Part shown: piece after piece, positions 379 through 32,000 of the stretch | Numbering within the stretch: the stretch's first letter is position 1 | Layout of the letters: each line of letters begins with the position of its first letter | Source: Pseudoalteromonas tetraodonis | GTDB taxonomy: Bacteria; Pseudomonadota; Gammaproteobacteria; Enterobacterales; Alteromonadaceae | Reading direction: 5' to 3' | DNA: 32,000 nucleotides | Assembly (NCBI RefSeq): GCF_002310835.1 | Contig: NZ_CP011042.1 | Location: 697,258-729,257 of the forward strand | The notes under the pieces: generated by a model | The model's database searches: none | What the model was told of the DNA's origin: nothing | The model's input: only the letters and a program-made list of their open reading frames with translations | Program-made: the position numbers and the translations under genes

Positions 379-3300
379 ATGTATAAAACACTTTCATCAG
401 GATTGATAGCATTTTGCTTTTTGAACACGCTAAGTTCCCAAGCTGCTGTTTCACAGCGAATAAACAAATCATCCACCCAAGAAGTTAAGCAACTTTTAAA
501 TCAAAACTCTTCTATTGCTAATACATCTTCTGCAAGTTCTTATTTTGTAGAATTAAAGCAACCTCAATTGAGCCTTTCACAACAAGTTAATGCATCTTCT
601 AAAAAGATGCAGCAATACTTTTCTGGGGTTCCAGTGTGGGGTCAGCAAATTAGAGTTCAGTCTAACTCTGAACATATTAGTGGTTTTTTTGCTAAAAACA
701 TTAACTTCGCATCTTTGAATAAAACAGCGACCGCTACTTTTGATGAGTTAAAAGCGGTTAAATCGTTGCTGACTAAGTCTAAATTAGATGATTCACTAGA
801 GAGTGAAATAATAAATAATAAGCGCTACATTTATATTCATGATGGAAAAGCGTACTATGTTCGCTTAATTGAACTTAAAGTAACTGAGAATGGCATTGAA
901 AAAATGCCAATAGGTTTAATAAGTGAATCGACTTATCAGATTTTTGAACTGTGGGATAATATTCAAAGTGTTGACGGTAAAGGACCTGGTGGTAATCAAA
1001 AGATTGGCCAATATGAATACGGTACAGATAAAGACGCATTTAATGTTACCCAAGTTGGCGATACTTGTTTTTTAGAAAATGACAAAGTAAAAACAGTCAC
1101 TATGGAATCGGGCTCTGAGCCAAGTGAAGCCTTTTCATTCACATGTAATCGTAATACGCATAAGGAAATAAATGGTGCTTTTTCCCCATTAAATGACGCT
1201 CATGCATTTGGAACTGCAGTTTTTGATATGTATCAACAATGGTACAACACTGCACCGCTTACATTTCAATTGTTAATGCGAGTTCACAGTGGTGATAACT
1301 GGGAAAATGCCACTTGGAATGGCCAAGCAATGACCTTTGGTGATGGCGCTGATAGGTTTTATCCGCTGGTTTCTCTTGATATTGTATCTCATGAGGTTAG
1401 CCATGGCTTTACTAGTCAAAACTCCAATCTTATTTACTCTAATCAATCAGGCGGAATTAACGAGTCTTTCTCTGATATGGCAGGTGAAACTGCAGAGTAT
1501 TTTTTACGTGGTGAAACCGACTGGTTATCAGGGGCGGATATTTCAAAAGTAGAGCCAGCTCTTCGTTACTTTGAAACGCCTTCATTAGATGGTGTTTCTA
1601 TTGATAAAGCCAGCGATTTTTATCCGGGCATGGATGTTCACTTTAGTAGTGGTGTTTTTAACCGTGCTTTTTTCCTGCTTTCAAATACTGATGGTTGGGA
1701 TCCTCAAAAAGCGTTTGAAATAATGCTAAAAGCAAATCAAAACTACTGGGTTAGCTCGAGTGGTTTTATCGATGGTGCATGTGGTGCAATCAACTCTGCA
1801 ATTGACCTACGTTATAATGCATCTGATGTAATTTCAGCATTTAATGAAGTAGAAGTTATTTGCGATAATATTAAGTTTGTCGATACTGATTCAGATTTAA
1901 TGGATGATAACTGGGAACTGTTATACGGACTAGACCCTTCAGATGCCGATGATGCTAACTTAGATTTGGACCAAGATGGTCTTTCTAACTTGGAAGAATA
2001 CTTAGCAAATACTCTTCCAAACTCAGTTGATACTGATGCTGATAGTTTATCTGATTACGATGAATTAAACGTCTACATGACGTTGCCTAACAACGTGGAT
2101 TCAGATTCCGATCGTATGCCAGATGGCTGGGAAGTCACTTTTTCATTTAATCCACTCGATGCAGCTGATGCAGAACTTGATTTTGATTCCGATAGCTGGG
2201 CTAACTTAATTGAGTACTATGGCAACAGCGACCCAACTGATCCAAACTCTGAACCTTCTATTTTTCCTGAAACTACTTATAATTTTGATGACGCAGTTGT
2301 CCCTGAATTTTTAGTTTCTTCAACCCCTCAAACGCCTTGGTTTATTACTGATTATGACGGCCACGATGGCTTAGTGTTAACTAACAGTGATATTACTGAT
2401 TCGCAACAAACGAGTGTTGAATTTCAATTTATAAGTGACGAACAACGTTTTGTTAACTTTAACTACTTATTGGAAACTGAAGCAAATTATGACTTCTTTA
2501 AAGTTTATATTAACGACACACTAGTTCTTGATGAGTCAGGCCTAACTGATTGGAAGGTGGCTTCTTTTCCATTACCTACTGGGTTTAATACAGTTAAGTT
2601 TGTATACACTAAAGACGTTATAGTGTCTGAAGGTTTAGATGCTGTATTTATCGATAATTTATACATTGGGCCTAGTTTCCCTGACTCTGATGGTGATGGT
2701 ATGTCAGATATGTGGGAATTATCGTATGGTTTGGATATAAATACTGACGACTCAGCGCTTGATTTAGATAACGATGGTTTATCTAACCTTCTTGAGTTTT
2801 TAAATAACGGTTTACCTAACAACTCAGATACTGATGGCGATTTAATGCCTGATGGGTGGGAGTATAACAACAGTCTAAATCTTACAGATGCCGCTGATGC
2901 GTCACAAGATGCTGACAATGATGGATTTACTAACTTCACAGAGTATCAAGCAAATACAGATCCTCAGTCAGATACTTCTTACCCTGTTGTTTTAAATATC
3001 ACAACGTCATTCGAAGGCGATACACTTCCAACATGGATGACTGAGTCAGTAGACTCAAGTGCGCCGTTTTTTATCACAAACGACTTTGCCACACAGGGCT
3101 CACAAAGTATTCGCTCGGGAGACATCACTGATTCTCAGTTTAGCGGGTTTACCGTCACGGGTTTATTTGAAGAAGGGGTTTTAGCGTTCGATTATAAGAT
3201 TGATTCTGAAGCGTGTTGTGACTTTTTTATCGTGACTATAGATGGTCAAGAAGTTATTGGTAATGCTGAACGTGGAAATTTGGACGCACCTGAACCAACT

Positions 3301-6819: not shown

Positions 6820-7287
6820 ATGAAGAATTATAAAGTTCTATTGTGTATTGGTTGTTTGTTTTTTGCTAATCAGTCTTTTGCTAAAACGATTTTACCTAGT
6901 AACAAAACTAAGTTTGTTAGCTTGTTTAATAGTAAAGTTGGCGATTATGAATTAATTTCAGGCGATGCTCGCTATTGTGATTCAGGTTCATTAATGTGGC
7001 TCGATAGAAATAATACCGATTTGGGTTTTAGACTTGGTAGTTTAATTTCTTTTATTGATTTACATAATGGAACACAAACTAATAAAGTCCCTGATTTTTG
7101 CCTAGTGACTACTAAGTTTAAATATACGAATATTGGTTTAACAATGGATTTGCGCCAAGACAGGTGTGACAATAATAGCGATACATTAGATGTTAGCCGC
7201 ACGCTAAATTTTGTTTCTGACACACAGTTAGAATATTCGATTAAAAATGCTAATGTTCAATGTAAGTTTGAATTAAAGCGTCTATAA
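6820..7287 (+). CDS. Hypothetical secreted protein (155 aa, Cys-containing)
   Basis: N-terminal signal peptide MKNYKVLLCIGCLFFANQSFA/K. No family recognised. The 3' end overlaps the umuC stop by 6 nt (convergent genes). Confidence 0.5.
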   Translation: MKNYKVLLCIGCLFFANQSFAKTILPSNKTKFVSLFNSKVGDYELISGDARYCDSGSLMWLDRNNTDLGFRLGSLISFIDLHNGTQTNKVPDFCLVTTKFKYTNIGLTMDLRQDRCDNNSDTLDVSRTLNFVSDTQLEYSIKNANVQCKFELKRL

Positions 7288-8544
7288 ATCGCATTTTATT
7301 TTTGGAATATCACGCCAACGAGTCGTGTATTGCGGCGATAAAAAAGCCCTGTTCATATGCCAATGATCATTTAATTGGCTGCTCGCCACGCTAAGCATTC
7401 CTTTACCGTATCTATGATTTATCGCATCTAAGCAGCCCATTAACTGCGGGTTATCGGTTTGCTTATCAAATAAATGATGTTGTTGAAACTGCTGCGGGCT
7501 GAGCTCTAATGCGCCCACACCACATTTATAAAATCGAATTCCCGGTTGATATATTTGCTCAAAACTCTTTGATACCGCATTGGCCATAACGCGAGTATCG
7601 TTAGTGGGCGGATCAAATTGATACATAACTGACTTTTTATAAAAGGCGTGTTCATGTGATGAGCTGGCAGCAAAAATATAAATACGATGAGTGAGCGACT
7701 GTTGTGCTCTTAATTTTTGTGCAACTACACTAGCATGATTTATTAGGGCGGTTTTAACTGCATCGGGGTCGCAAAGTCGCTGACCAAAACTACGAGTTGA
7801 AAAAATAGCTTGTTTATCTTGGCGTACATCATCCCAGTTTAAACAGGTAATGCCGTTGAGCTCGTTAATTGTGCGCTCAAGCACCACACTAAATTGGCGA
7901 CGAATAGTTTTTGGGCTTTGCTCAGCCAGTTGCCACGCGGTATGAATGTCCATGAGAGCCAGCTTTTTAGCTAAACGTTTGCCCACCCCCCAAACATCTT
8001 GGCAGTGCATTCGTTGTAAAATAGTGCGGCGACTTACTTCATCGTCAATCACTGCAACACCATTAAAGCCAGTTAGTTTTTTAGCTGCATGGTTAGCGGC
8101 TTTGGCTAAGGTCGGTGTTGGCCCAAAGCCAACCCCAACAGGGAGTTTGGTTTCGCGCCATACAGTACGCCTAATTAGTTGCCCATATGCTTGCCAATCG
8201 TTAATTAAAGGTTGATAACCATTAAAGTGTAAAAACGATTCATCGATACTGTAAACATGCTGGGTGTCACAAAAGCGGCCAATTACACTCATCATCCGGT
8301 CGCTTAAATTAGCGTATAGTTCATAGTTACTAGAGCGTACAACCACATTGTTTTGTTCTAGTAACTGCTTAACTTTAAAGTAAGGGCCAAATTTAGGAAT
8401 ATTAAGCTTACGCGCAATTGGGCAGACCGCACACACACAACCGTCGTTATTGGTAAGCACCACCACAGGCTTTGAGCGAATAGCCGGATCAAATACTTTT
8501 TCTGCACTGGCATAAAAAGCAACGGCATCGACTAAGGCATACAT
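7282..8544 (-). CDS. umuC: DNA polymerase V catalytic subunit UmuC (Y-family polymerase)
   Basis: N-terminus MYALVDAVAFYASAEKVFDP resembles E. coli UmuC MFALCDVNAFYASCETVFRP. 420 aa. Overlaps the umuD 3' end by 13 nt. Confidence 0.93.
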   Translation of the reverse strand: MYALVDAVAFYASAEKVFDPAIRSKPVVVLTNNDGCVCAVCPIARKLNIPKFGPYFKVKQLLEQNNVVVRSSNYELYANLSDRMMSVIGRFCDTQHVYSIDESFLHFNGYQPLINDWQAYGQLIRRTVWRETKLPVGVGFGPTPTLAKAANHAAKKLTGFNGVAVIDDEVSRRTILQRMHCQDVWGVGKRLAKKLALMDIHTAWQLAEQSPKTIRRQFSVVLERTINELNGITCLNWDDVRQDKQAIFSTRSFGQRLCDPDAVKTALINHASVVAQKLRAQQSLTHRIYIFAASSSHEHAFYKKSVMYQFDPPTNDTRVMANAVSKSFEQIYQPGIRFYKCGVGALELSPQQFQQHHLFDKQTDNPQLMGCLDAINHRYGKGMLSVASSQLNDHWHMNRAFLSPQYTTRWRDIPKIKCDL

Positions 8545-8945
8545 GAAAGTAACTCAGGGCTTTGTCGATGCAGCCTAATAGAGCGAGTTACCACGCCTTC
8601 AAGCTGAAACTCATCTGATTCAGTCAATTGCACCGGCTTATAAGCAGAAGAGGCTGATAGCAAGCGTGCATTGGTCTTATCAAGCAGCTTACATACAAAT
8701 AAACCATTTAAGTTAGCCACAATAACATCGCCATCTTTTGGTATTTCTGCACGGTCAACCAACAGTAAGTCGCCCTCAAAAATACCAATTTCTTGCATAG
8801 AGCACCCAGATGCTATCCCAATAAACGTGGCATCAGGGTGCTTTATTAATAACTCATCAAGTGAAACGCCAAGCTCTGTATATTGTGCTGCAGGTGACTC
8901 AAATCCGCATACACCGGCCTCTATATAAATGGGAATAACAAACAT
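8532..8945 (-). CDS. umuD: UmuD, LexA-like S24 self-cleaving peptidase subunit of Pol V
   Basis: GVC/GFESPAAQY matches the E. coli UmuD cleavage region VQC/GFPSPAADY. Catalytic Ser in ASGCSM and Lys in FVCKLL. AGGT lies 7 nt upstream of ATG 8945. Confidence 0.9.
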   Translation of the reverse strand: MFVIPIYIEAGVCGFESPAAQYTELGVSLDELLIKHPDATFIGIASGCSMQEIGIFEGDLLLVDRAEIPKDGDVIVANLNGLFVCKLLDKTNARLLSASSAYKPVQLTESDEFQLEGVVTRSIRLHRQSPELLSCMP

Positions 8946-8965
8946 AACACAACCTAAAACGCATA

Positions 8966-8985
8966 TACTGTATAAGTGTACAGTA
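8966..8985 (-). promoter_or_regulatory. LexA (SOS) box upstream of umuDC
   Basis: TACTGTATAAGTGTACAGTA fits the CTGT-N8-ACAG consensus and lies 21 nt upstream of the umuD ATG. It is embedded in a larger perfect palindrome (arms 8956-8972 and 8979-8995). Confidence 0.88.
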
Positions 8986-9026
8986 TATGCGTTTTATATA
9001 AGTTATGCCAAGTAATGGATCTGCGA

Positions 9027-9446
9027 TCAATCCATATTTTTGATCATTTGCTGAGCTGTATCTAAGAAGTCATTGATTTGCTGTGGGTTTAAGTTTTTAC
9101 ACATTTGGGCATTTACATGCTGCTCAGCGTTTAATAATTTGTCGTAAAGCGTGCACCCTTGTGCGGTAAACGACAGAATAAAACAACGCTTGTCATGCTC
9201 ACTGGCATTTTTATGAATTAAGTTTAGCGCGAGCAGTTCTTTCACTAACCGTGCTATTTGGGCTTTGTCGCGTTGGGTTTGATTCACAATATCGTTAGCA
9301 GTGCACTGAGGTGTCGCTGCAATAATATGCAGACAACGCACATGCATCGCGTTTAATCCAAGCTCACCTGCATTAATGGCTTCGCGTATGGTAACGCGAT
9401 AATTTTGCATTAAAGCAAATAATGTATTGGCCAATGAAGAGTTCAT
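9027..9446 (-). CDS. MarR-family transcriptional regulator (139 aa with the ATG 9446 start)
   Basis: Winged-helix MarR-like core (..HVRCLHIIAATPQCTANDIVNQTQRDKAQIARLVKELLALNLI..). The track start at 9521 is a TTG only 27 nt from the divergent gene. ATG 9446 gives a typical MarR length and a 102-bp intergenic region containing operator-like palindromes. Confidence 0.8.
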   Translation of the reverse strand: MNSSLANTLFALMQNYRVTIREAINAGELGLNAMHVRCLHIIAATPQCTANDIVNQTQRDKAQIARLVKELLALNLIHKNASEHDKRCFILSFTAQGCTLYDKLLNAEQHVNAQMCKNLNPQQINDFLDTAQQMIKNMD

Positions 9447-17057: not shown

Positions 17058-17126
17058 AGCTGATAGCTGATAGCTGATAGCTGATAGCTGATAGCTGATA
17101 GCTGATAGCTGATAGCTGATAGCTGA
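17058..17126. repeat. Perfect tandem heptad array (AGCTGAT) x ~9.9
   Basis: agctgat is repeated without interruption from 17058 to 17126 (69 nt). It ends exactly where the XerC-arm equivalent of the dif-like site begins. Confidence 0.97.
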
Positions 17127-17153
17127 AAACCCATAAATTACGTTATGTTAAAT
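17126..17153 (+). other. dif: Candidate XerCD dimer-resolution site (dif) of this replicon
   Basis: AAAACCCATAA|ATTACG|TTATGTTAAAT. The XerD arm is 11/11 identical to the E. coli and V. cholerae dif XerD arm. The inner XerC arm CATAA sits at the correct 6-bp spacing. The outer XerC arm is non-consensus. Confidence 0.65.
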
Positions 17154-17923: not shown

Positions 17924-19135
17924 ATGCTTGTTGCTCTGGTCGATACATTAAAACAATTACGTTATCAAATAGCTCATCTTGAAGATAATACACTCTCATC
18001 AGAATATCCAGAACTAGCCTCTTTTATACAGCAAGTCAGCTTGACTGTAACTGAATCAAAGGCTGATCTTAATTTTTTATACCAGTTTTTATATGTTTAT
18101 GGACGAAAATCTGAGGCAACCTATAGTCGTTTTCGTAATGAGTTGGAACGTTTTTATTTATGGTCATGGCTTATAGCTGAAAAATCTGTATTTGAACTTA
18201 AGCGTGAAGATATTGAAGCCTATGTTGATTTTATGGTTGAACCGGATAAAAAATGGGCATCTAAATCTGTTCAATGGCGTTATAAAGATGAGCAAGGAAT
18301 TCGTCGGTTAAATCAAAATTGGCGCCCTTTCATGTTAAAAGAATCTATTGCGAGTCAGCAAACATTATCGGCCATGTTTACTGCCCTCAATGTATTTTAT
18401 AAATTCGCTATTTTAGAAGAAAAAACCTTTGCTAACTTTGTACCTGTTGTTAAAAAAAATAGTCCCTACTTGGTTGTGCAATCGCAAATACAAATCCCCG
18501 ATACATTAAGTGATATTCAATGGGAATATGTATTTGGCGTTACCAGAGATATATGCGAAAAAAAACCAGAGTATGAAAGAAACTTATTTACCCTCGCCTG
18601 TTTAAAAGGACTCTATCTTCGTATTTCAGAATTATCAGAGCGACCACAATGGTCACCTGTTATGTCTCATTTTTGGCAAGATAATGATGGCTTTTGGTTT
18701 TTACGAATAATGGGCAAAGGAAATAAATTACGCGATGTAACATTAAGTGATGATTTTCTTGAGTATTTAAAACGTTATCGCTTGTATCGAGGCTTGCCTG
18801 CTCTGCCCCGCGTTGATGAGTCAGACCCTCTAGTTCATAAAATTCGTGGTCAGGGTGGAATGACCGTAAGACAAATTCGCAGATTGGTACAACAAAGTTT
18901 CGATATTGCGCAACAATCTTTACTTGATGATGGATTTAAAGATGACGCGGAACAATTAGAAGCGGCCACTGCGCATTGGCTACGCCATACGGGGGCAACG
19001 CATGACGCGCAAACTCGCCCTTTAAAACATTTATCTGAAGATTTAGGCCATGCAAAAATTGCTACAACCGATCAAATTTATATTCAAACAAATATAAAAG
19101 AGCGGGCTAAATCTGGAATTAAAAGGAAAATTTAA
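17924..19135 (+). CDS. Tyrosine-type site-specific recombinase / integrase (403 aa)
   Basis: C-terminal catalytic signature: LRISEL (Arg), HWLRHTGATH (HxxR), LGHAKIATT (His) and DQIYIQ (Tyr). Long N-terminal SAM-like/core-binding region. No tRNA gene nearby. Confidence 0.85.
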   Translation: MLVALVDTLKQLRYQIAHLEDNTLSSEYPELASFIQQVSLTVTESKADLNFLYQFLYVYGRKSEATYSRFRNELERFYLWSWLIAEKSVFELKREDIEAYVDFMVEPDKKWASKSVQWRYKDEQGIRRLNQNWRPFMLKESIASQQTLSAMFTALNVFYKFAILEEKTFANFVPVVKKNSPYLVVQSQIQIPDTLSDIQWEYVFGVTRDICEKKPEYERNLFTLACLKGLYLRISELSERPQWSPVMSHFWQDNDGFWFLRIMGKGNKLRDVTLSDDFLEYLKRYRLYRGLPALPRVDESDPLVHKIRGQGGMTVRQIRRLVQQSFDIAQQSLLDDGFKDDAEQLEAATAHWLRHTGATHDAQTRPLKHLSEDLGHAKIATTDQIYIQTNIKERAKSGIKRKI

Positions 19136-28915: not shown

Positions 28916-28935
28916 GAACACATCATACTTAATTA
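28916..28935 (-). other. Ter-like site 1 (candidate Tus-binding replication terminator)
   Basis: The plus strand reads GAACACATCATACTTAATTA, so the minus strand is TAATTAAGTATGATGTGTTC. It contains TAAGTATG, as in E. coli TerB AATAAGTATGTTGTAACTAAAGT. Identical 20-mer to site 2. Confidence 0.55.
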
Positions 28936-29103
28936 GCACTTATGTAATCTTAACTTTACGGGTGGTTTTAAAAAAGAATGCTACTCAATTATGCGTTTTT
29001 AAATATTTATGCTAACGCTTCATACAAAGCTCAGTGCCTTAACTCAGCCCTTCTATTATTTCCTTTAAAGTATATGAAGCAAAAGTACTTAAAAAACCAT
29101 AAA

Positions 29104-29123
29104 GAACACATCATACTTAATTA
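29104..29123 (-). other. Ter-like site 2
   Basis: Exact copy of the 20-mer at 28916-28935. Flanking sequence is also partly similar (..tgtaa(a)tctta..). Confidence 0.55.
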
Positions 29124-29200
29124 AAATTACTGTAAATCTTAGCTAAAGCATGTTATTTAAAGAAATAAATATCAAAAGAAAGGGTTGTTTGCGAGAATAG

Positions 29201-29220
29201 TATATAAGTAAGATGTGTTC
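29201..29220 (+). other. Ter-like site 3, inverted relative to sites 1 and 2, 15 nt upstream of the tus ATG
   Basis: TATATAAGTAAGATGTGTTC matches the minus-strand reading of sites 1/2 at 17/20. Its position resembles that of E. coli TerB in the tus promoter. Confidence 0.6.
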
Positions 29221-29234
29221 TAGGTAGGTAGCTA

Positions 29235-30110
29235 ATGGTTACAAAGGTACAAATAAGAAGTCAGTTTGATTTACTCAATGAATTAACACTTAGCTTAATT
29301 GATGAGCTTAAAGGGGTTGGCTTTGCTAAAGCAGAGTATTTTCAATTACCTGAGATTAGTAGTACTGAAGAAAATATAATTCCTGAGTCTATAAGCGTTT
29401 CAAAAATAACAGGGGAATTGGCACATAAGGCAATTTTAAATGCTTTCTCAGATATGTATAAAAAGCCAGGGCTAAGCAGCCGAGTATTAAAGCGACACCC
29501 TGGTTTGCTAGTAATAAAAGAGGCGAATAAACAAGCCATTATTGATCGCATAGCACAGGTAAATAGTGCAAAAGCAGCTTTTAAAAATTGTATTTTAGCA
29601 ATAGATAATAACGACGCGCGATTTGAAGCGGTGCATAATGCAATGCCAAATTTAATAACGCTTGCGGCGTATCGTAAAATTCATAGTGAAATTGAATCCC
29701 CTTTTTCTGTTCGCTTTACTTGGATGCATAAACACGCAACCAAAACACTTACAAAAAAAATGGCGCTTGAAATGTTAGAAAAATCGGCAGGCTATAAAAA
29801 CCCGCGAATGATTGATCAGCAAAAATGGCAGTCACTGGTTGCACAAGAACAGGTTCGAGTAGCCAGTTTGGGTGAAAAAGAAAAATTGCGAATTAGGCGC
29901 CCTACTCGAGTTAGTCCTCAAGTTAATGTGAGGTACACTGCACAAAATCGCTATCATGTTAGTGCTGCTTTACCTTTTATACTAATTAACCCACAGCCCG
30001 ACGTAAAATTTGGCGAACTACCGAGTTACCAAAAACCCTTATCGCATCCCCGAAAACGCGAATATGATTTTCTAGTGGACCGATTATATTTAGAACAAGT
30101 AACTAAATAA
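29235..30110 (+). CDS. tus: DNA replication terminus site-binding protein Tus
   Basis: [30 protein letters not shown] resembles E. coli Tus [47 protein letters not shown] resembles LKIKRPVKVQPIARVWY. 291 aa versus 309 aa. Confidence 0.88.
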   Translation: [291 protein letters not shown]

Positions 30111-30117
30111 ATTATGT

Positions 30118-30146
30118 TAAAAAGGCCACATAATGTGGCCTTTAAT
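30118..30146. terminator. Bidirectional terminator between tus and the initiator gene
   Basis: aaaggccaca-taa-tgtggccttt: a perfect 10-bp stem (30121-30130 / 30134-30143). Confidence 0.8.
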
Positions 30147-30172: not shown

Positions 30173-31387
30173 TTACTTTTCTACAATTTCTTCCAGCTTA
30201 TCTTCATCAATCAATACCGCATTTTCAACAATGCGTTTACCGCCTTGTATTTCAATACGCTTATTGTGTTTATTTAATGCCAATATCTCATCACAAAATT
30301 GATCAGACGGATGCATTTCATAAGTGTAATCGACTATGTTGCCGGTTTTATCATCTTTAACATTGGTAATGCTGTATTCAGATATTGCTCCTTTTTCAAT
30401 TAAATCTTTCATCGTGGTTGTCATATCACGACGCAGTGCTTTTAATTTATTTTCGGTAATATCATCCGTTGAGTAAATAGAGCCATATTTTTCCATAATA
30501 GAAAGTAATCTAAAATGGTAGGTTTTTCCTGGTGCTGCATAACGCCATAAATGATATAAACGTAGCATCATCCAACGCGATAATCCGCGTTTTAATTCTT
30601 GTGCACTGTTAAAGTAATAACCTTTGTATTCAAGGTTATCAATCATGTTGTGTACAAATGCATTTAAACACGCAACACATTTTACATTTCCGCCTTGGCC
30701 TTTCTTACCACTAAAGTGCAAAGACGATAAAAAGTTCATATTAGACTCGTAAAACGAATCATCAATATCAGAATTTTTAGTATCCGTTGCAGAATATTTA
30801 AAAGAAAGTTTAGAACCTTGCAATGCTTCAAGCGACTCTTTAATTTGCGGATATGGCATAGATTGGCCAACCGCTTTAAGCTCTTGTGCTAATTCGTTCA
30901 TAGAAAACACAACGGCATATTGAATACCGGACTTAAAATTAATTTTTACAATTTTACCTTTTGAAGCTAGGCGAATTAATGCGCGCTCTACTTTTTCTTC
31001 TCTATCTGATGGCCACACTAAATATTCTACATCTTCGCCATCTTTACGAGTACTGACCACAGCCGGTGTTATTTTTATTTCGCCATCATATAAAATACCA
31101 TCTACTTTTTCAGATATCTTACGCGTAATGATGGTTTTTTTAGGGGCTTCTTCAAGTGGCAGTTTTTTGTGGCCTGAGCGAACAAAACGTCCCCACAGAT
31201 CATAATGGTTAAATGTGTTAGAGTAAGCGCGTAACCCATGGGCTGCATTTTCTATCGAAATTCGCACATCTTTATTATCTGTAAATAGTGCTAGGCTTTC
31301 GTTATCGATCGCACTTTCCACCCCGTGAATTTGGCCCCTAAGTGTATCGGGCAAGTTATCTACCGAGATGTTGACCTTTCGGCTCAT
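30173..31387 (-). CDS. Putative plasmid-type replication initiator (RepA-like) of this replicon
   Basis: Called mainly from context. The gene reads away from an iteron-, DnaA-box- and GATC-rich region that starts about 70 bp upstream, and it is adjacent to tus. About 404 aa. The track start at 31441 is a TTG; the first ATG is 31387 (MSRKVNISV...). I recognise no catalytic motif. Confidence 0.6.
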   Translation of the reverse strand: MSRKVNISVDNLPDTLRGQIHGVESAIDNESLALFTDNKDVRISIENAAHGLRAYSNTFNHYDLWGRFVRSGHKKLPLEEAPKKTIITRKISEKVDGILYDGEIKITPAVVSTRKDGEDVEYLVWPSDREEKVERALIRLASKGKIVKINFKSGIQYAVVFSMNELAQELKAVGQSMPYPQIKESLEALQGSKLSFKYSATDTKNSDIDDSFYESNMNFLSSLHFSGKKGQGGNVKCVACLNAFVHNMIDNLEYKGYYFNSAQELKRGLSRWMMLRLYHLWRYAAPGKTYHFRLLSIMEKYGSIYSTDDITENKLKALRRDMTTTMKDLIEKGAISEYSITNVKDDKTGNIVDYTYEMHPSDQFCDEILALNKHNKRIEIQGGKRIVENAVLIDEDKLEEIVEK

Positions 31388-31457
31388 GGTTTTTATTTCC
31401 GTTTTTATTGTGACAGCTAATAACAACACATAAAGCCACAAAAGTTAAATGTTTAAG

Positions 31458-31584
31458 TTAGTATAAAAGTGATCTGACTTCAAATAAAATGCTCAGATCA
31501 GTATTTTACTAAGGAAAACTTAAAACAAGCGTTTTCAGATCACATTTTTACTAACTGAGTGTTGATAAGCCAAATTTTTACTAA
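31458..31584. repeat. Iteron cluster A (19-mers, consensus CAGATCAnnnTTTTACTAA)
   Basis: Inverted copy ttagtataaaagtgatctg at 31458-31476. Forward copies cagatcagtattttactaa at 31494-31512 and cagatcacatttttactaa at 31536-31554. Degenerate forward copy without GATC at about 31566-31584. TACTAA cores are spaced 42 and 30 bp apart. Confidence 0.7.
31560..31568 (-). promoter_or_regulatory. Near-consensus DnaA box (one mismatch)
   Basis: TGTTGATAA versus TGTGnATAA (reverse complement of TTATnCACA). Followed by GC, like the perfect box at 31663. Confidence 0.45.
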
Positions 31585-31662
31585 CTAAATAATAATTTTG
31601 TCCATTACAAAGTGTTTTTTTTTATATTTTACACGACAAATTATATAAAAATCTTAACCCCC

Positions 31663-31671
31663 TGTGGATAA
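31663..31671 (-). promoter_or_regulatory. Perfect DnaA box
   Basis: TGTGGATAA is the reverse complement of the consensus TTATCCACA. It borders an AT-rich stretch (31585-31660). Confidence 0.7.
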
Positions 31672-31688
31672 GCTTAGTTCGAGTTAGC

Positions 31689-31725
31689 ATAGATCTGATC
31701 TGTACTTACTACAGATCAGATCTAT
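31689..31725. repeat. Perfect 16-bp-arm palindrome carrying four GATC sites
   Basis: atagatctgatctgta (31689-31704), cttac, tacagatcagatctat (31710-31725). Confidence 0.95.
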
Positions 31726-31779
31726 ACTAATTAAACCATGCATTATCACTATTGCTTAGTGCATAACTTTATAATTTAC

Positions 31780-31881
31780 TTAGTAAAAATATGATCTACA
31801 GGTAGGTATTTGTGAGTAACTCAGTGCTTAACCTGTGCGTAACTTAGATTGTAAATATTCGCTTAGTAAAAAGCTGATCTG
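31780..31881. repeat. Iteron cluster B (two inverted-orientation copies)
   Basis: ttagtaaaaatatgatcta at 31780-31798 and ttagtaaaaagctgatctg at 31863-31881. Both are reverse complements of the CAGATCAnnnTTTTACTAA consensus. Confidence 0.7.
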
Positions 31882-32000
31882 CAAGTAGATAAGGATCTGA
31901 TCTTAACCACGTACAATGCTGATCCACTATTTTTAATATTATTTATATAAATCATTACGTTATATATGTATTTTACACCCTTAGCCTTAAATACCTTATA

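Follow-up and report, generated by a model that had tools for sequence, protein, structure and literature searches.

A putative, very narrow Tus-Ter fork trap beside the chromid origin of Pseudoalteromonas tetraodonis

In Escherichia coli, Tus-Ter complexes act with a defined polarity: the GC(6) end of Ter is the non-permissive face, and the replicative helicase encircles the lagging-strand template that bears G6 (Pandey 2015). The core of E. coli Ter comprises positions 6 and 8–18, whereas positions 1–5, 7, and 19–23 are variable (Goodall 2021), and one of the sites, TerB, serves autoregulation from within the tus promoter (Toft 2021; Goodall 2021). In Pseudoalteromonas, tus adjoins ori2, the origin of the chromid (Galli 2019), and marker-frequency data have shown that chromid replication is unidirectional in relatives of the strain considered here, with its start at the parA side and its end at the repA/tus side (Xie 2021; also TAC125). 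A terB-like site in the tus promoter, together with replication resembling that of plasmid R1, has been speculated upon (Goodall 2021), the R1 analogy has been explicitly proposed for Pseudoalteromonas (Goodall 2021, 2023), and the ter site was drawn with a question mark in the 2023 review. A search of P. tunicata with the E. coli ter consensus failed (Xie 2021), and the "vicinal Ter" approach has been used only in Enterobacterales, with Pseudoalteromonas as the outgroup (Toft 2021). This article describes a 32,000-nucleotide stretch of Pseudoalteromonas tetraodonis DNA (contig NZ_CP011042.1, positions 697,258–729,257; hereafter the window), in which three short repeats are located upstream of the tus gene next to ori2. 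We propose, with a probability of roughly 0.7, that these three repeats are Ter sites for the adjacently encoded Tus and form a very narrow polar fork trap beside the chromid origin.

Sites 1 and 2 are exact copies of one 20-mer, TAATTAAGTATGATGTGTTC, on the minus strand, as the original prediction had stated. Site 1 (28916–28935; G6 at 28928, C18 at 28916) would be the distal back-up, and site 2 (29104–29123; G6 at 29116) is the predicted main arrest site for a leftward fork from ori2. Site 3, TATATAAGTAAGATGTGTTC, is the opposite-strand copy announced as matching at 17 of 20 positions and was found as such, with three mismatches, at 29201–29220 on the plus strand; its G6 at 29208 occupies position −27 relative to the tus ATG. 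Sites 1 and 2 have the opposite orientation, and their non-permissive faces point right, toward tus and ori2, whereas that of site 3 points left. With up to three mismatches allowed, the 20-mer has no other match in the window than these three sites (chance expectation 0.01), and the 16-mer core TAAGTAWGATGTGTTC is likewise found in three places only, which are sites 1–3. The sites directly precede a tus homologue, as had been recognized: the end of site 3 is 14 bp from the start of an open reading frame (ORF) at 29235–30110 on the plus strand, encoding 291 amino acids, which is Tus both by Pfam (PF05472, E = 3.4e-90 over the full length) and by match to the E. coli Tus structures 1ECR/2I06 (E = 5e-25 for PDB 1ECR). 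The claimed closeness to the origin was also borne out, site 3 being approximately 2.2 kb from the repA/iteron origin, of which the iteron and DnaA-box region begins at 31442.

The orientation of the sites has a definite consequence for forks. The G6 of a minus-strand site lies on the lagging-strand template of a leftward fork, and sites 1 and 2 are therefore predicted to block forks coming from ori2; by the same polarity, the plus-strand site is predicted to block forks arriving from the left. The assignment of the GC(6) end as the non-permissive face agrees with Pandey 2015, and the fork geometry drawn from it was right. The reverse polarity would stop both forks outside the trap and leave its interior, the 91 bp between the inward non-permissive faces of sites 2 and 3 (29117–29207), unreplicated, so that the polarity assumed at the outset is the only workable one. 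The interior is the predicted fork-fusion zone. In the proposed mechanism, RepA would fire two forks at ori2, and the leftward fork, running through repA and tus, would pass site 3 from its permissive side and be locked at site 2 after approximately 2.3 kb, within seconds, by a C6 "mousetrap" as in E. coli, with site 1 as back-up. There it would remain parked until the other fork, having copied the remainder of the replicon, has run past dif2, gone through sites 1 and 2 by way of their permissive faces, and merged with it at site 2. An incoming fork would be stopped at site 3 where no parked fork is present; the earlier claim that the returning fork passes sites 1 and 2 and stops at site 3 is thus right in orientation, but the fork would normally meet the one parked at site 2 instead. 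The net result would be effectively unidirectional replication, and repression of the tus promoter, the role of TerB in E. coli, is probably a further function of site 3.

Conservation was examined by a Tus-alignment scan with one genome per species, which gave 45 Pseudoalteromonas loci whose Tus identities range between 97% and 40%, and by further sampling of nine loci from pigmented or divergent species, of an uncultured lineage (locus L077), and of the chromid of Pseudoalteromonas sp. HL-AS2. The original prediction had looked to the absence of the motif from related tus-encoding replicons as a sign against it; the 13-mer GTAWGATGTGTTC proved to be present upstream of tus in 51 of these 56 other loci, down to 43% Tus identity (41 of the 45 species representatives, eight of the nine pigmented or divergent loci, L077, and the HL-AS2 chromid). 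When the 16-mer was allowed up to three mismatches, all mismatches fell at positions 3–5 or 9 (41 of 45 loci). The invariant unit is this 13-mer, which corresponds to E. coli Ter positions 6–18 and is usually followed by TT; it is unchanged over these positions in more than 120 sites, and positions 1–5 are AT-rich and variable. The resemblance to E. coli TerB that had been noticed is therefore real and in the right register, although the conserved unit is the 13-mer and not the 20-mer. Other copies of the 13-mer were not found within ±6 kb of the species-representative loci, and ori2 and the parAB side are also devoid of the motif. When the 175 bp preceding tus in 42 distinct sequences are aligned with MAFFT, the only two islands with at least 98% conservation are the cores of sites 2 and 3, and the interior between them is unconserved between species; because the DNA around the cores has diverged beyond recognition, the cores are under selection.

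The arrangement of the copies is equally regular. In the canonical layout, a plus copy lies 15–27 bp before the tus ATG and a minus copy 84–139 bp upstream in all 42 sequences, and a second minus copy is found in 40 of the 42 at a variable distance, 215–5162 bp upstream of tus. Every copy located more than 60 bp upstream of tus, across all loci, is in the minus orientation (102/102), and 44 of the 49 tus-adjacent copies are plus, the other five, all at pigmented-species loci, being flipped to minus. Opposed pairs of the site 2/site 3 type are a feature of all 42 canonical sequences, as well as of P. xiamenensis, THAF3, and P. byunsanensis, the first two of these three having the canonical layout. 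Such an inverted pair is also what transposon ends look like, and, with Tus binding here being predicted, the repeats could instead bind another protein (RepA at iterons, ParB, or another regulator) or be remnants of a mobile element, their likeness to Ter being a coincidence. We consider this very improbable, since the iterons of ori2 differ in sequence and neither ori2 nor the parAB side contains the motif, linkage of the sites to tus is constant, the spacing varies by species while the core is invariant, unlike in a mobile-element relic, and the match to Ter is specific in register, extent, and position relative to tus.

Pigmented and divergent species depart from the canonical layout. The tus-adjacent copy is flipped to minus in P. 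aurantia, P. citrea, P. phenolica, and P. piscicida (L047, L048, L049, and L053). P. citrea has six minus copies, and P. piscicida (L053) has five, with its only plus copy between tus and repA (at approximately 6970), which places tus inside the trap. The Tus of L077 is 43–44% identical to any other, and its locus carries two exact minus copies of the 13-mer; at 1117–1143 of this locus, an exact 13-mer and an adjacent degenerate copy are located inside the coding sequence of a FecCD-type permease upstream of tus. In P. rubra (L050), a 2.5-kb ORF-free insert between tus and repA (6874–9389) carries a degenerate tandem array with a period of approximately 160/323 bp and approximately 12 Ter-like copies without G6, mostly TTAATGATGTGTTCTT or near variants; the array copies are all minus, plus one plus copy, and they may be Tus-binding decoys or lock-less barriers. 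Outside these loci, a 244-kb plasmid of P. donghaensis (L072) encodes a second tus, 27% identical, with a GTATG-type site, GGTATGATGGTATAG, just upstream (approximately 330–345), and Aeromonas caviae (L070) has a GTATG-type inverted pair, CCATCATAC and GGTATGGTTATTTATAC, just upstream of tus (270–300). Across the non-pigmented species (L001–L041), Tus evolves far faster than its neighbors (71–97% identity, vs. 96–100% for RepA), and the Ter core is invariant down to 43% Tus identity despite this fast evolution.

The five loci without the motif (L042–L045 and L052) form an informative group. Their matches with three mismatches equal the shuffled expectation, their Tus is 40–44% identical to that of the window and their RepA 83%, and in the two of these Tus proteins that were aligned (L042 and L043) N or H takes the place of E49, and I that of R198. 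The clade of L042–L045 was assigned from the length, AT content, and GATC count of the repA–parA interval in comparison with Table S3b of Xie 2021; for calibration, the values obtained for P. prydzensis (773 bp, 71.8% AT, 14 GATC) are exactly those tabled. The ori2 of L042 (857 bp, 70.1%, 15 GATC) is identical in these values to that of P. spongiae, and those of L043–L045 (856 bp, approximately 71%, 15 GATC) are close to that of P. piratica (856 bp, 70.9%, 14 GATC). Clade I, to which these loci are assigned by origin signature and not by name, is the only clade known to have bidirectionally replicating chromids (Xie 2021). Conversely, a cluster of minus Ter copies is present in every sampled species that is tabled with an origin-proximal dif2, namely P. 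prydzensis, P. mariniglutinosa, P. lipolytica, P. phenolica, P. luteoviolacea, P. rubra, and P. piscicida. Although L077 has the same derived FecCD-tus gene order as the clade-I-like loci, it has kept the motif, which indicates that the loss is specific to the clade-I-like lineage. The Ter hypothesis could have failed in the comparison with the motif-less loci and did not. The GC skew at third codon positions of the DAHP-synthase gene, an underpowered comparison, differs in the predicted direction in the clade-I-like loci (−0.02 to +0.09, vs. a mean of −0.134 with a standard deviation of 0.08); that of repA has no shift, and the tus and parA controls are noisy.

In place of Ter, the only candidate replacement found in the clade-I-like loci is a conserved block, TTTATATCA-N11-ATAAAGCTTGT, approximately 60–95 bp upstream of tus (5900–5960 in L042–L045, approximately 300–330 in L052), which has no convincing relation to Ter and may be a retargeted Tus site or simply a promoter. 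Furthermore, a lone AAGTATGATGTGGAT approximately 4 kb upstream of tus in L043 and L044 (approximately 1941–1955, minus strand) matches Ter positions 4–15 and then diverges, and may be the decayed relic of a former Ter site. A broader scenario is possible, which we put forward tentatively and hold to be somewhat doubtful: ori2 would always fire two forks, the battery of minus Ter sites would park one of them and thereby make the chromid unidirectional, and the single known switch to bidirectional replication, in the clade of P. spongiae and P. piratica, would have been caused or enabled by loss of the battery and retargeting of Tus (with E49 and R198 replaced), insertions that moved the terminus, which are the present proposal, not being the whole cause.

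The search of a whole replicon that the original prediction had called for was run on the related HL-AS2 chromid, which is complete (680,547 bp, assembled from fourteen 50-kb segments) and encodes a Tus 84% identical. With up to one mismatch, the 13-mer has three matches only in this chromid, all adjoining tus, where 0.03 exact copies and 1.1 copies with one mismatch are expected by chance; two-mismatch matches are rarer than expected (7 vs. 19.8). Of 35 windows of the chromid, 30 share one sign of GC skew, and the cumulative curve is monotonic, with the polarity of a fork that leaves ori2 on the parAB side and reaches tus from the dif2 side. This direction agrees with the marker-frequency data and the dif2 positions of Xie 2021, and the unidirectional replication that had been predicted thus accords both with the skew and with published measurements on relatives. 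A dif2-like site precedes the Ter cluster by approximately 12 kb, as it does in the window, where the GC skew is positive over roughly the first 20 kb and then weak or negative.

Unidirectional replication could also arise without a parked fork. Initiation at ori2 may be intrinsically unidirectional, with a single fork, in which case Tus-Ter would only stop the returning fork, against over-replication, rolling circles, and multimers, and autoregulate tus. Xie 2021 left open if one fork is fired or two and likened RepA to the R1 initiator; loss of Tus leads to multimers and rolling-circle intermediates of plasmid R1, as related in Goodall 2023 with reference to Krabbe 1997; and the tus-adjacent plus site is oriented to stop the returning fork. 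A single fork would, however, leave the minus sites nothing to block, yet these are the most conserved and numerous class (102/102 of the distal copies, and up to six in P. citrea), and some species are without a plus site. Moreover, with a working plus site and no leftward fork, the 2.2-kb segment from tus to repA could not replicate. The single-fork explanation is accordingly unlikely in our judgment, although it is the most credible of the alternatives. Universal and multiple minus sites would be sensible only with a leftward fork, which argues for two forks at ori2.

A closer comparison with E. coli concerns both the site and the protein. In E. coli, the coding strand of tus carries TerB, AATAAGTATGTTGTAACTAAAGT, with its G6 at −28, as confirmed by a 54-nucleotide query that has a match in 5,424 of 5,426 E. 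coli genomes (at least 99% identity in 2,596); site 3 is on the coding strand of tus as well, its G6 being at −27, and by this placement is the positional counterpart of TerB. The Tus proteins are homologous, G6-T-A-W-G-x-T-G-T is common to the two sites, positions 1–5 are AT-rich and variable in both, and the conserved core extends over positions 6–18 as in E. coli. Identity to TerB covers positions 6–10 and 12–14, i.e., eight of the nine positions 6–14, including G6; from the E. coli Ter consensus, GNATGTTGTAACTA, the site differs at positions 11 and 15–19. The site reads as a diverged Ter and not an E. coli-type Ter, and the differences at positions 15–18 explain the failure of the E. coli-consensus search in P. 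tunicata (Xie 2021). Residues conserved among the aligned Tus proteins are F140, H144, R198, E49, K175, and R232 (E. coli numbering); R198 is connected with transient fork stoppage in a study that Toft 2021 cites.

By analogy with TerB, site 3 probably serves mainly as the tus operator and as the closure or backstop of the trap. By eye, a weak −35/−10 can be read over site 3; in a promoter scan of the window, matches were no commoner than in shuffled sequence, with none at site 3. The sites could be purely transcriptional operators through which Tus regulates tus and perhaps neighboring genes, with no role in replication, given that TerB itself mediates autoregulation from the E. coli tus promoter (Toft 2021; Goodall 2021) and that site 3 overlaps the weak candidate −10 read by eye. 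This is improbable, more so than a single fork: copies occur up to 5 kb from tus and, in L077, inside a coding region, an operator has no need of strict orientation bias, an invariant G6, or partly conserved lock residues, and it is precisely the lineage with the bidirectional-type origin that lacks the motif.

Several points weigh against a Tus-Ter trap, and are collected here. The site is unlike E. coli Ter at core positions 11 and 15–18 (GATGTGTTC vs. GTTGTAACT), and the Tus alignment has I79 replaced by K or L and G149 by N. The residues F140, H144, I79, and G149 are reportedly part of the cytosine-6 pocket. A plus site within reach was not found in P. citrea, P. aurantia, or P. phenolica, so that a closed trap is not universal. 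Most of the canonical loci are close relatives, the loss of the motif in the bidirectional-type lineage is a single evolutionary event, and the placement of L042–L045 in clade I has the origin signature as its basis. Keeping one fork parked throughout a replication cycle would be risky as a design. Tus binding, polar arrest, two-fork firing, and autoregulation are all steps that we infer, binding and pausing being predicted from sequence.

The neighborhood of the trap is compatible with the organization described for these chromids. Between the convergent tus and repA genes, a GC-rich hairpin with T/A runs (30121–30143) resembles a bidirectional terminator. The repA gene (30173–31387, minus strand) encodes the 404-amino-acid chromid replication initiator, for which no Pfam family was found and whose function has been established in minimal-replicon assays (Xie 2021); RepA is 83–100% identical and syntenic in the other tus loci whose contig reaches repA. 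The repA–parA intergenic region is ori2 (Xie 2021, Table S3b), of which 31442–32000 is contained in the window before its end cuts it. This part holds iteron-like repeats, with at least nine CAGATCA-N7-TACTAA units in both orientations, many GATC sites in clusters, the only perfect DnaA box in the window (31663–31671), and a box with one mismatch at 31560–31568; a near-perfect 21-nucleotide palindrome lies at 31684–31730. Reading the three Ter-like sites as iterons or DnaA boxes was rejected, the ori2 repeats being of the above type and the Ter motif being absent from ori2. An Rfam scan of the window gave no structured RNA.

At the other side of the trap, a dif2-like XerC/D site, AAAACCCATAAATTACGTTATGTTAAAT, is located in an intergenic position at 17126–17153 on the plus strand, with a XerD arm identical to that of E. 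coli dif. It lies 11.8 kb before the Ter cluster along the direction in which the long fork would travel; dif2 has been placed 4–27 kb from ori2 (0.3–2.5% of the replicon) on the repA side (Xie 2021). The site is in a low-GC stretch (15–18 kb, GC 0.31–0.32) and adjoins a 403-amino-acid ORF (17924–19135), whose length and neighborhood are those of the annotated tyrosine recombinase gene of the HL-AS2 chromid.

Pseudoalteromonas chromids are an experimental model for the transition from a unidirectional plasmid to a bidirectional chromosome, for which the cis-acting terminators and the number of forks at the origin, one or two, have long been open points. A 13-bp Ter consensus with positions and polarity makes the mechanism directly testable, provides a second, diverged Tus-Ter pair for the study of protein/site co-evolution, and offers a natural comparison between lineages that keep an origin-proximal trap and a lineage without it. 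The existence of such sites will be no surprise to specialists, who had predicted them. The original prediction could not confirm that a site-level Ter map had been described; none was found for Pseudoalteromonas chromids in the literature searched, in which a reported search had failed (Xie 2021), and the motif as a text string retrieved unrelated primer matches only. The idea was thus anticipated; what appears to be new is the site map, the consensus, the polarity, the uniqueness in the replicon, and the lack of the motif in the bidirectional-type lineage. The sites are best described as a real, previously unmapped, and diverged Tus-Ter family member whose arrangement is origin-proximal and R1-like.

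Among known systems, the chromosomal traps differ from this arrangement chiefly in scale and location. The partner sites of E. coli TerB are hundreds of kilobases away and the trap is opposite the origin, whereas the Pseudoalteromonas partners are approximately 90 and 280 bp away and the trap is beside the origin. In the type I chromosomal traps of Enterobacterales outside Enterobacteriaceae (Toft 2021), the innermost site adjoins tus, as here; however, these traps are 18–56 kb wide or more, are located opposite oriC, and serve bidirectional replication, whereas the Pseudoalteromonas trap is approximately 60–110 bp wide and 2 kb from the origin. The ter sites of plasmid R6K and the RTP-Ter system of Bacillus subtilis are likewise polar fork barriers in which a terminator protein acts on short opposed sites. 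R6K uses the host Tus and has a terminus that is placed asymmetrically and not beside the origin, and RTP, a protein of unrelated sequence, binds as a dimer. The closest likeness is to terRL/terRR of plasmid R1 (IncFII), two opposed ter sites right beside the origin. The chromid would work like R1 without being an R1-family replicon, its RepA having no detectable family. Furthermore, R1 carries no tus and uses that of its host, whereas the chromid encodes tus inside or beside the trap; and the chromid is essential and 0.6–1.4 Mb in size, has two to six tandem back-up sites, and would hold its arrested fork for a chromosome-scale cycle.

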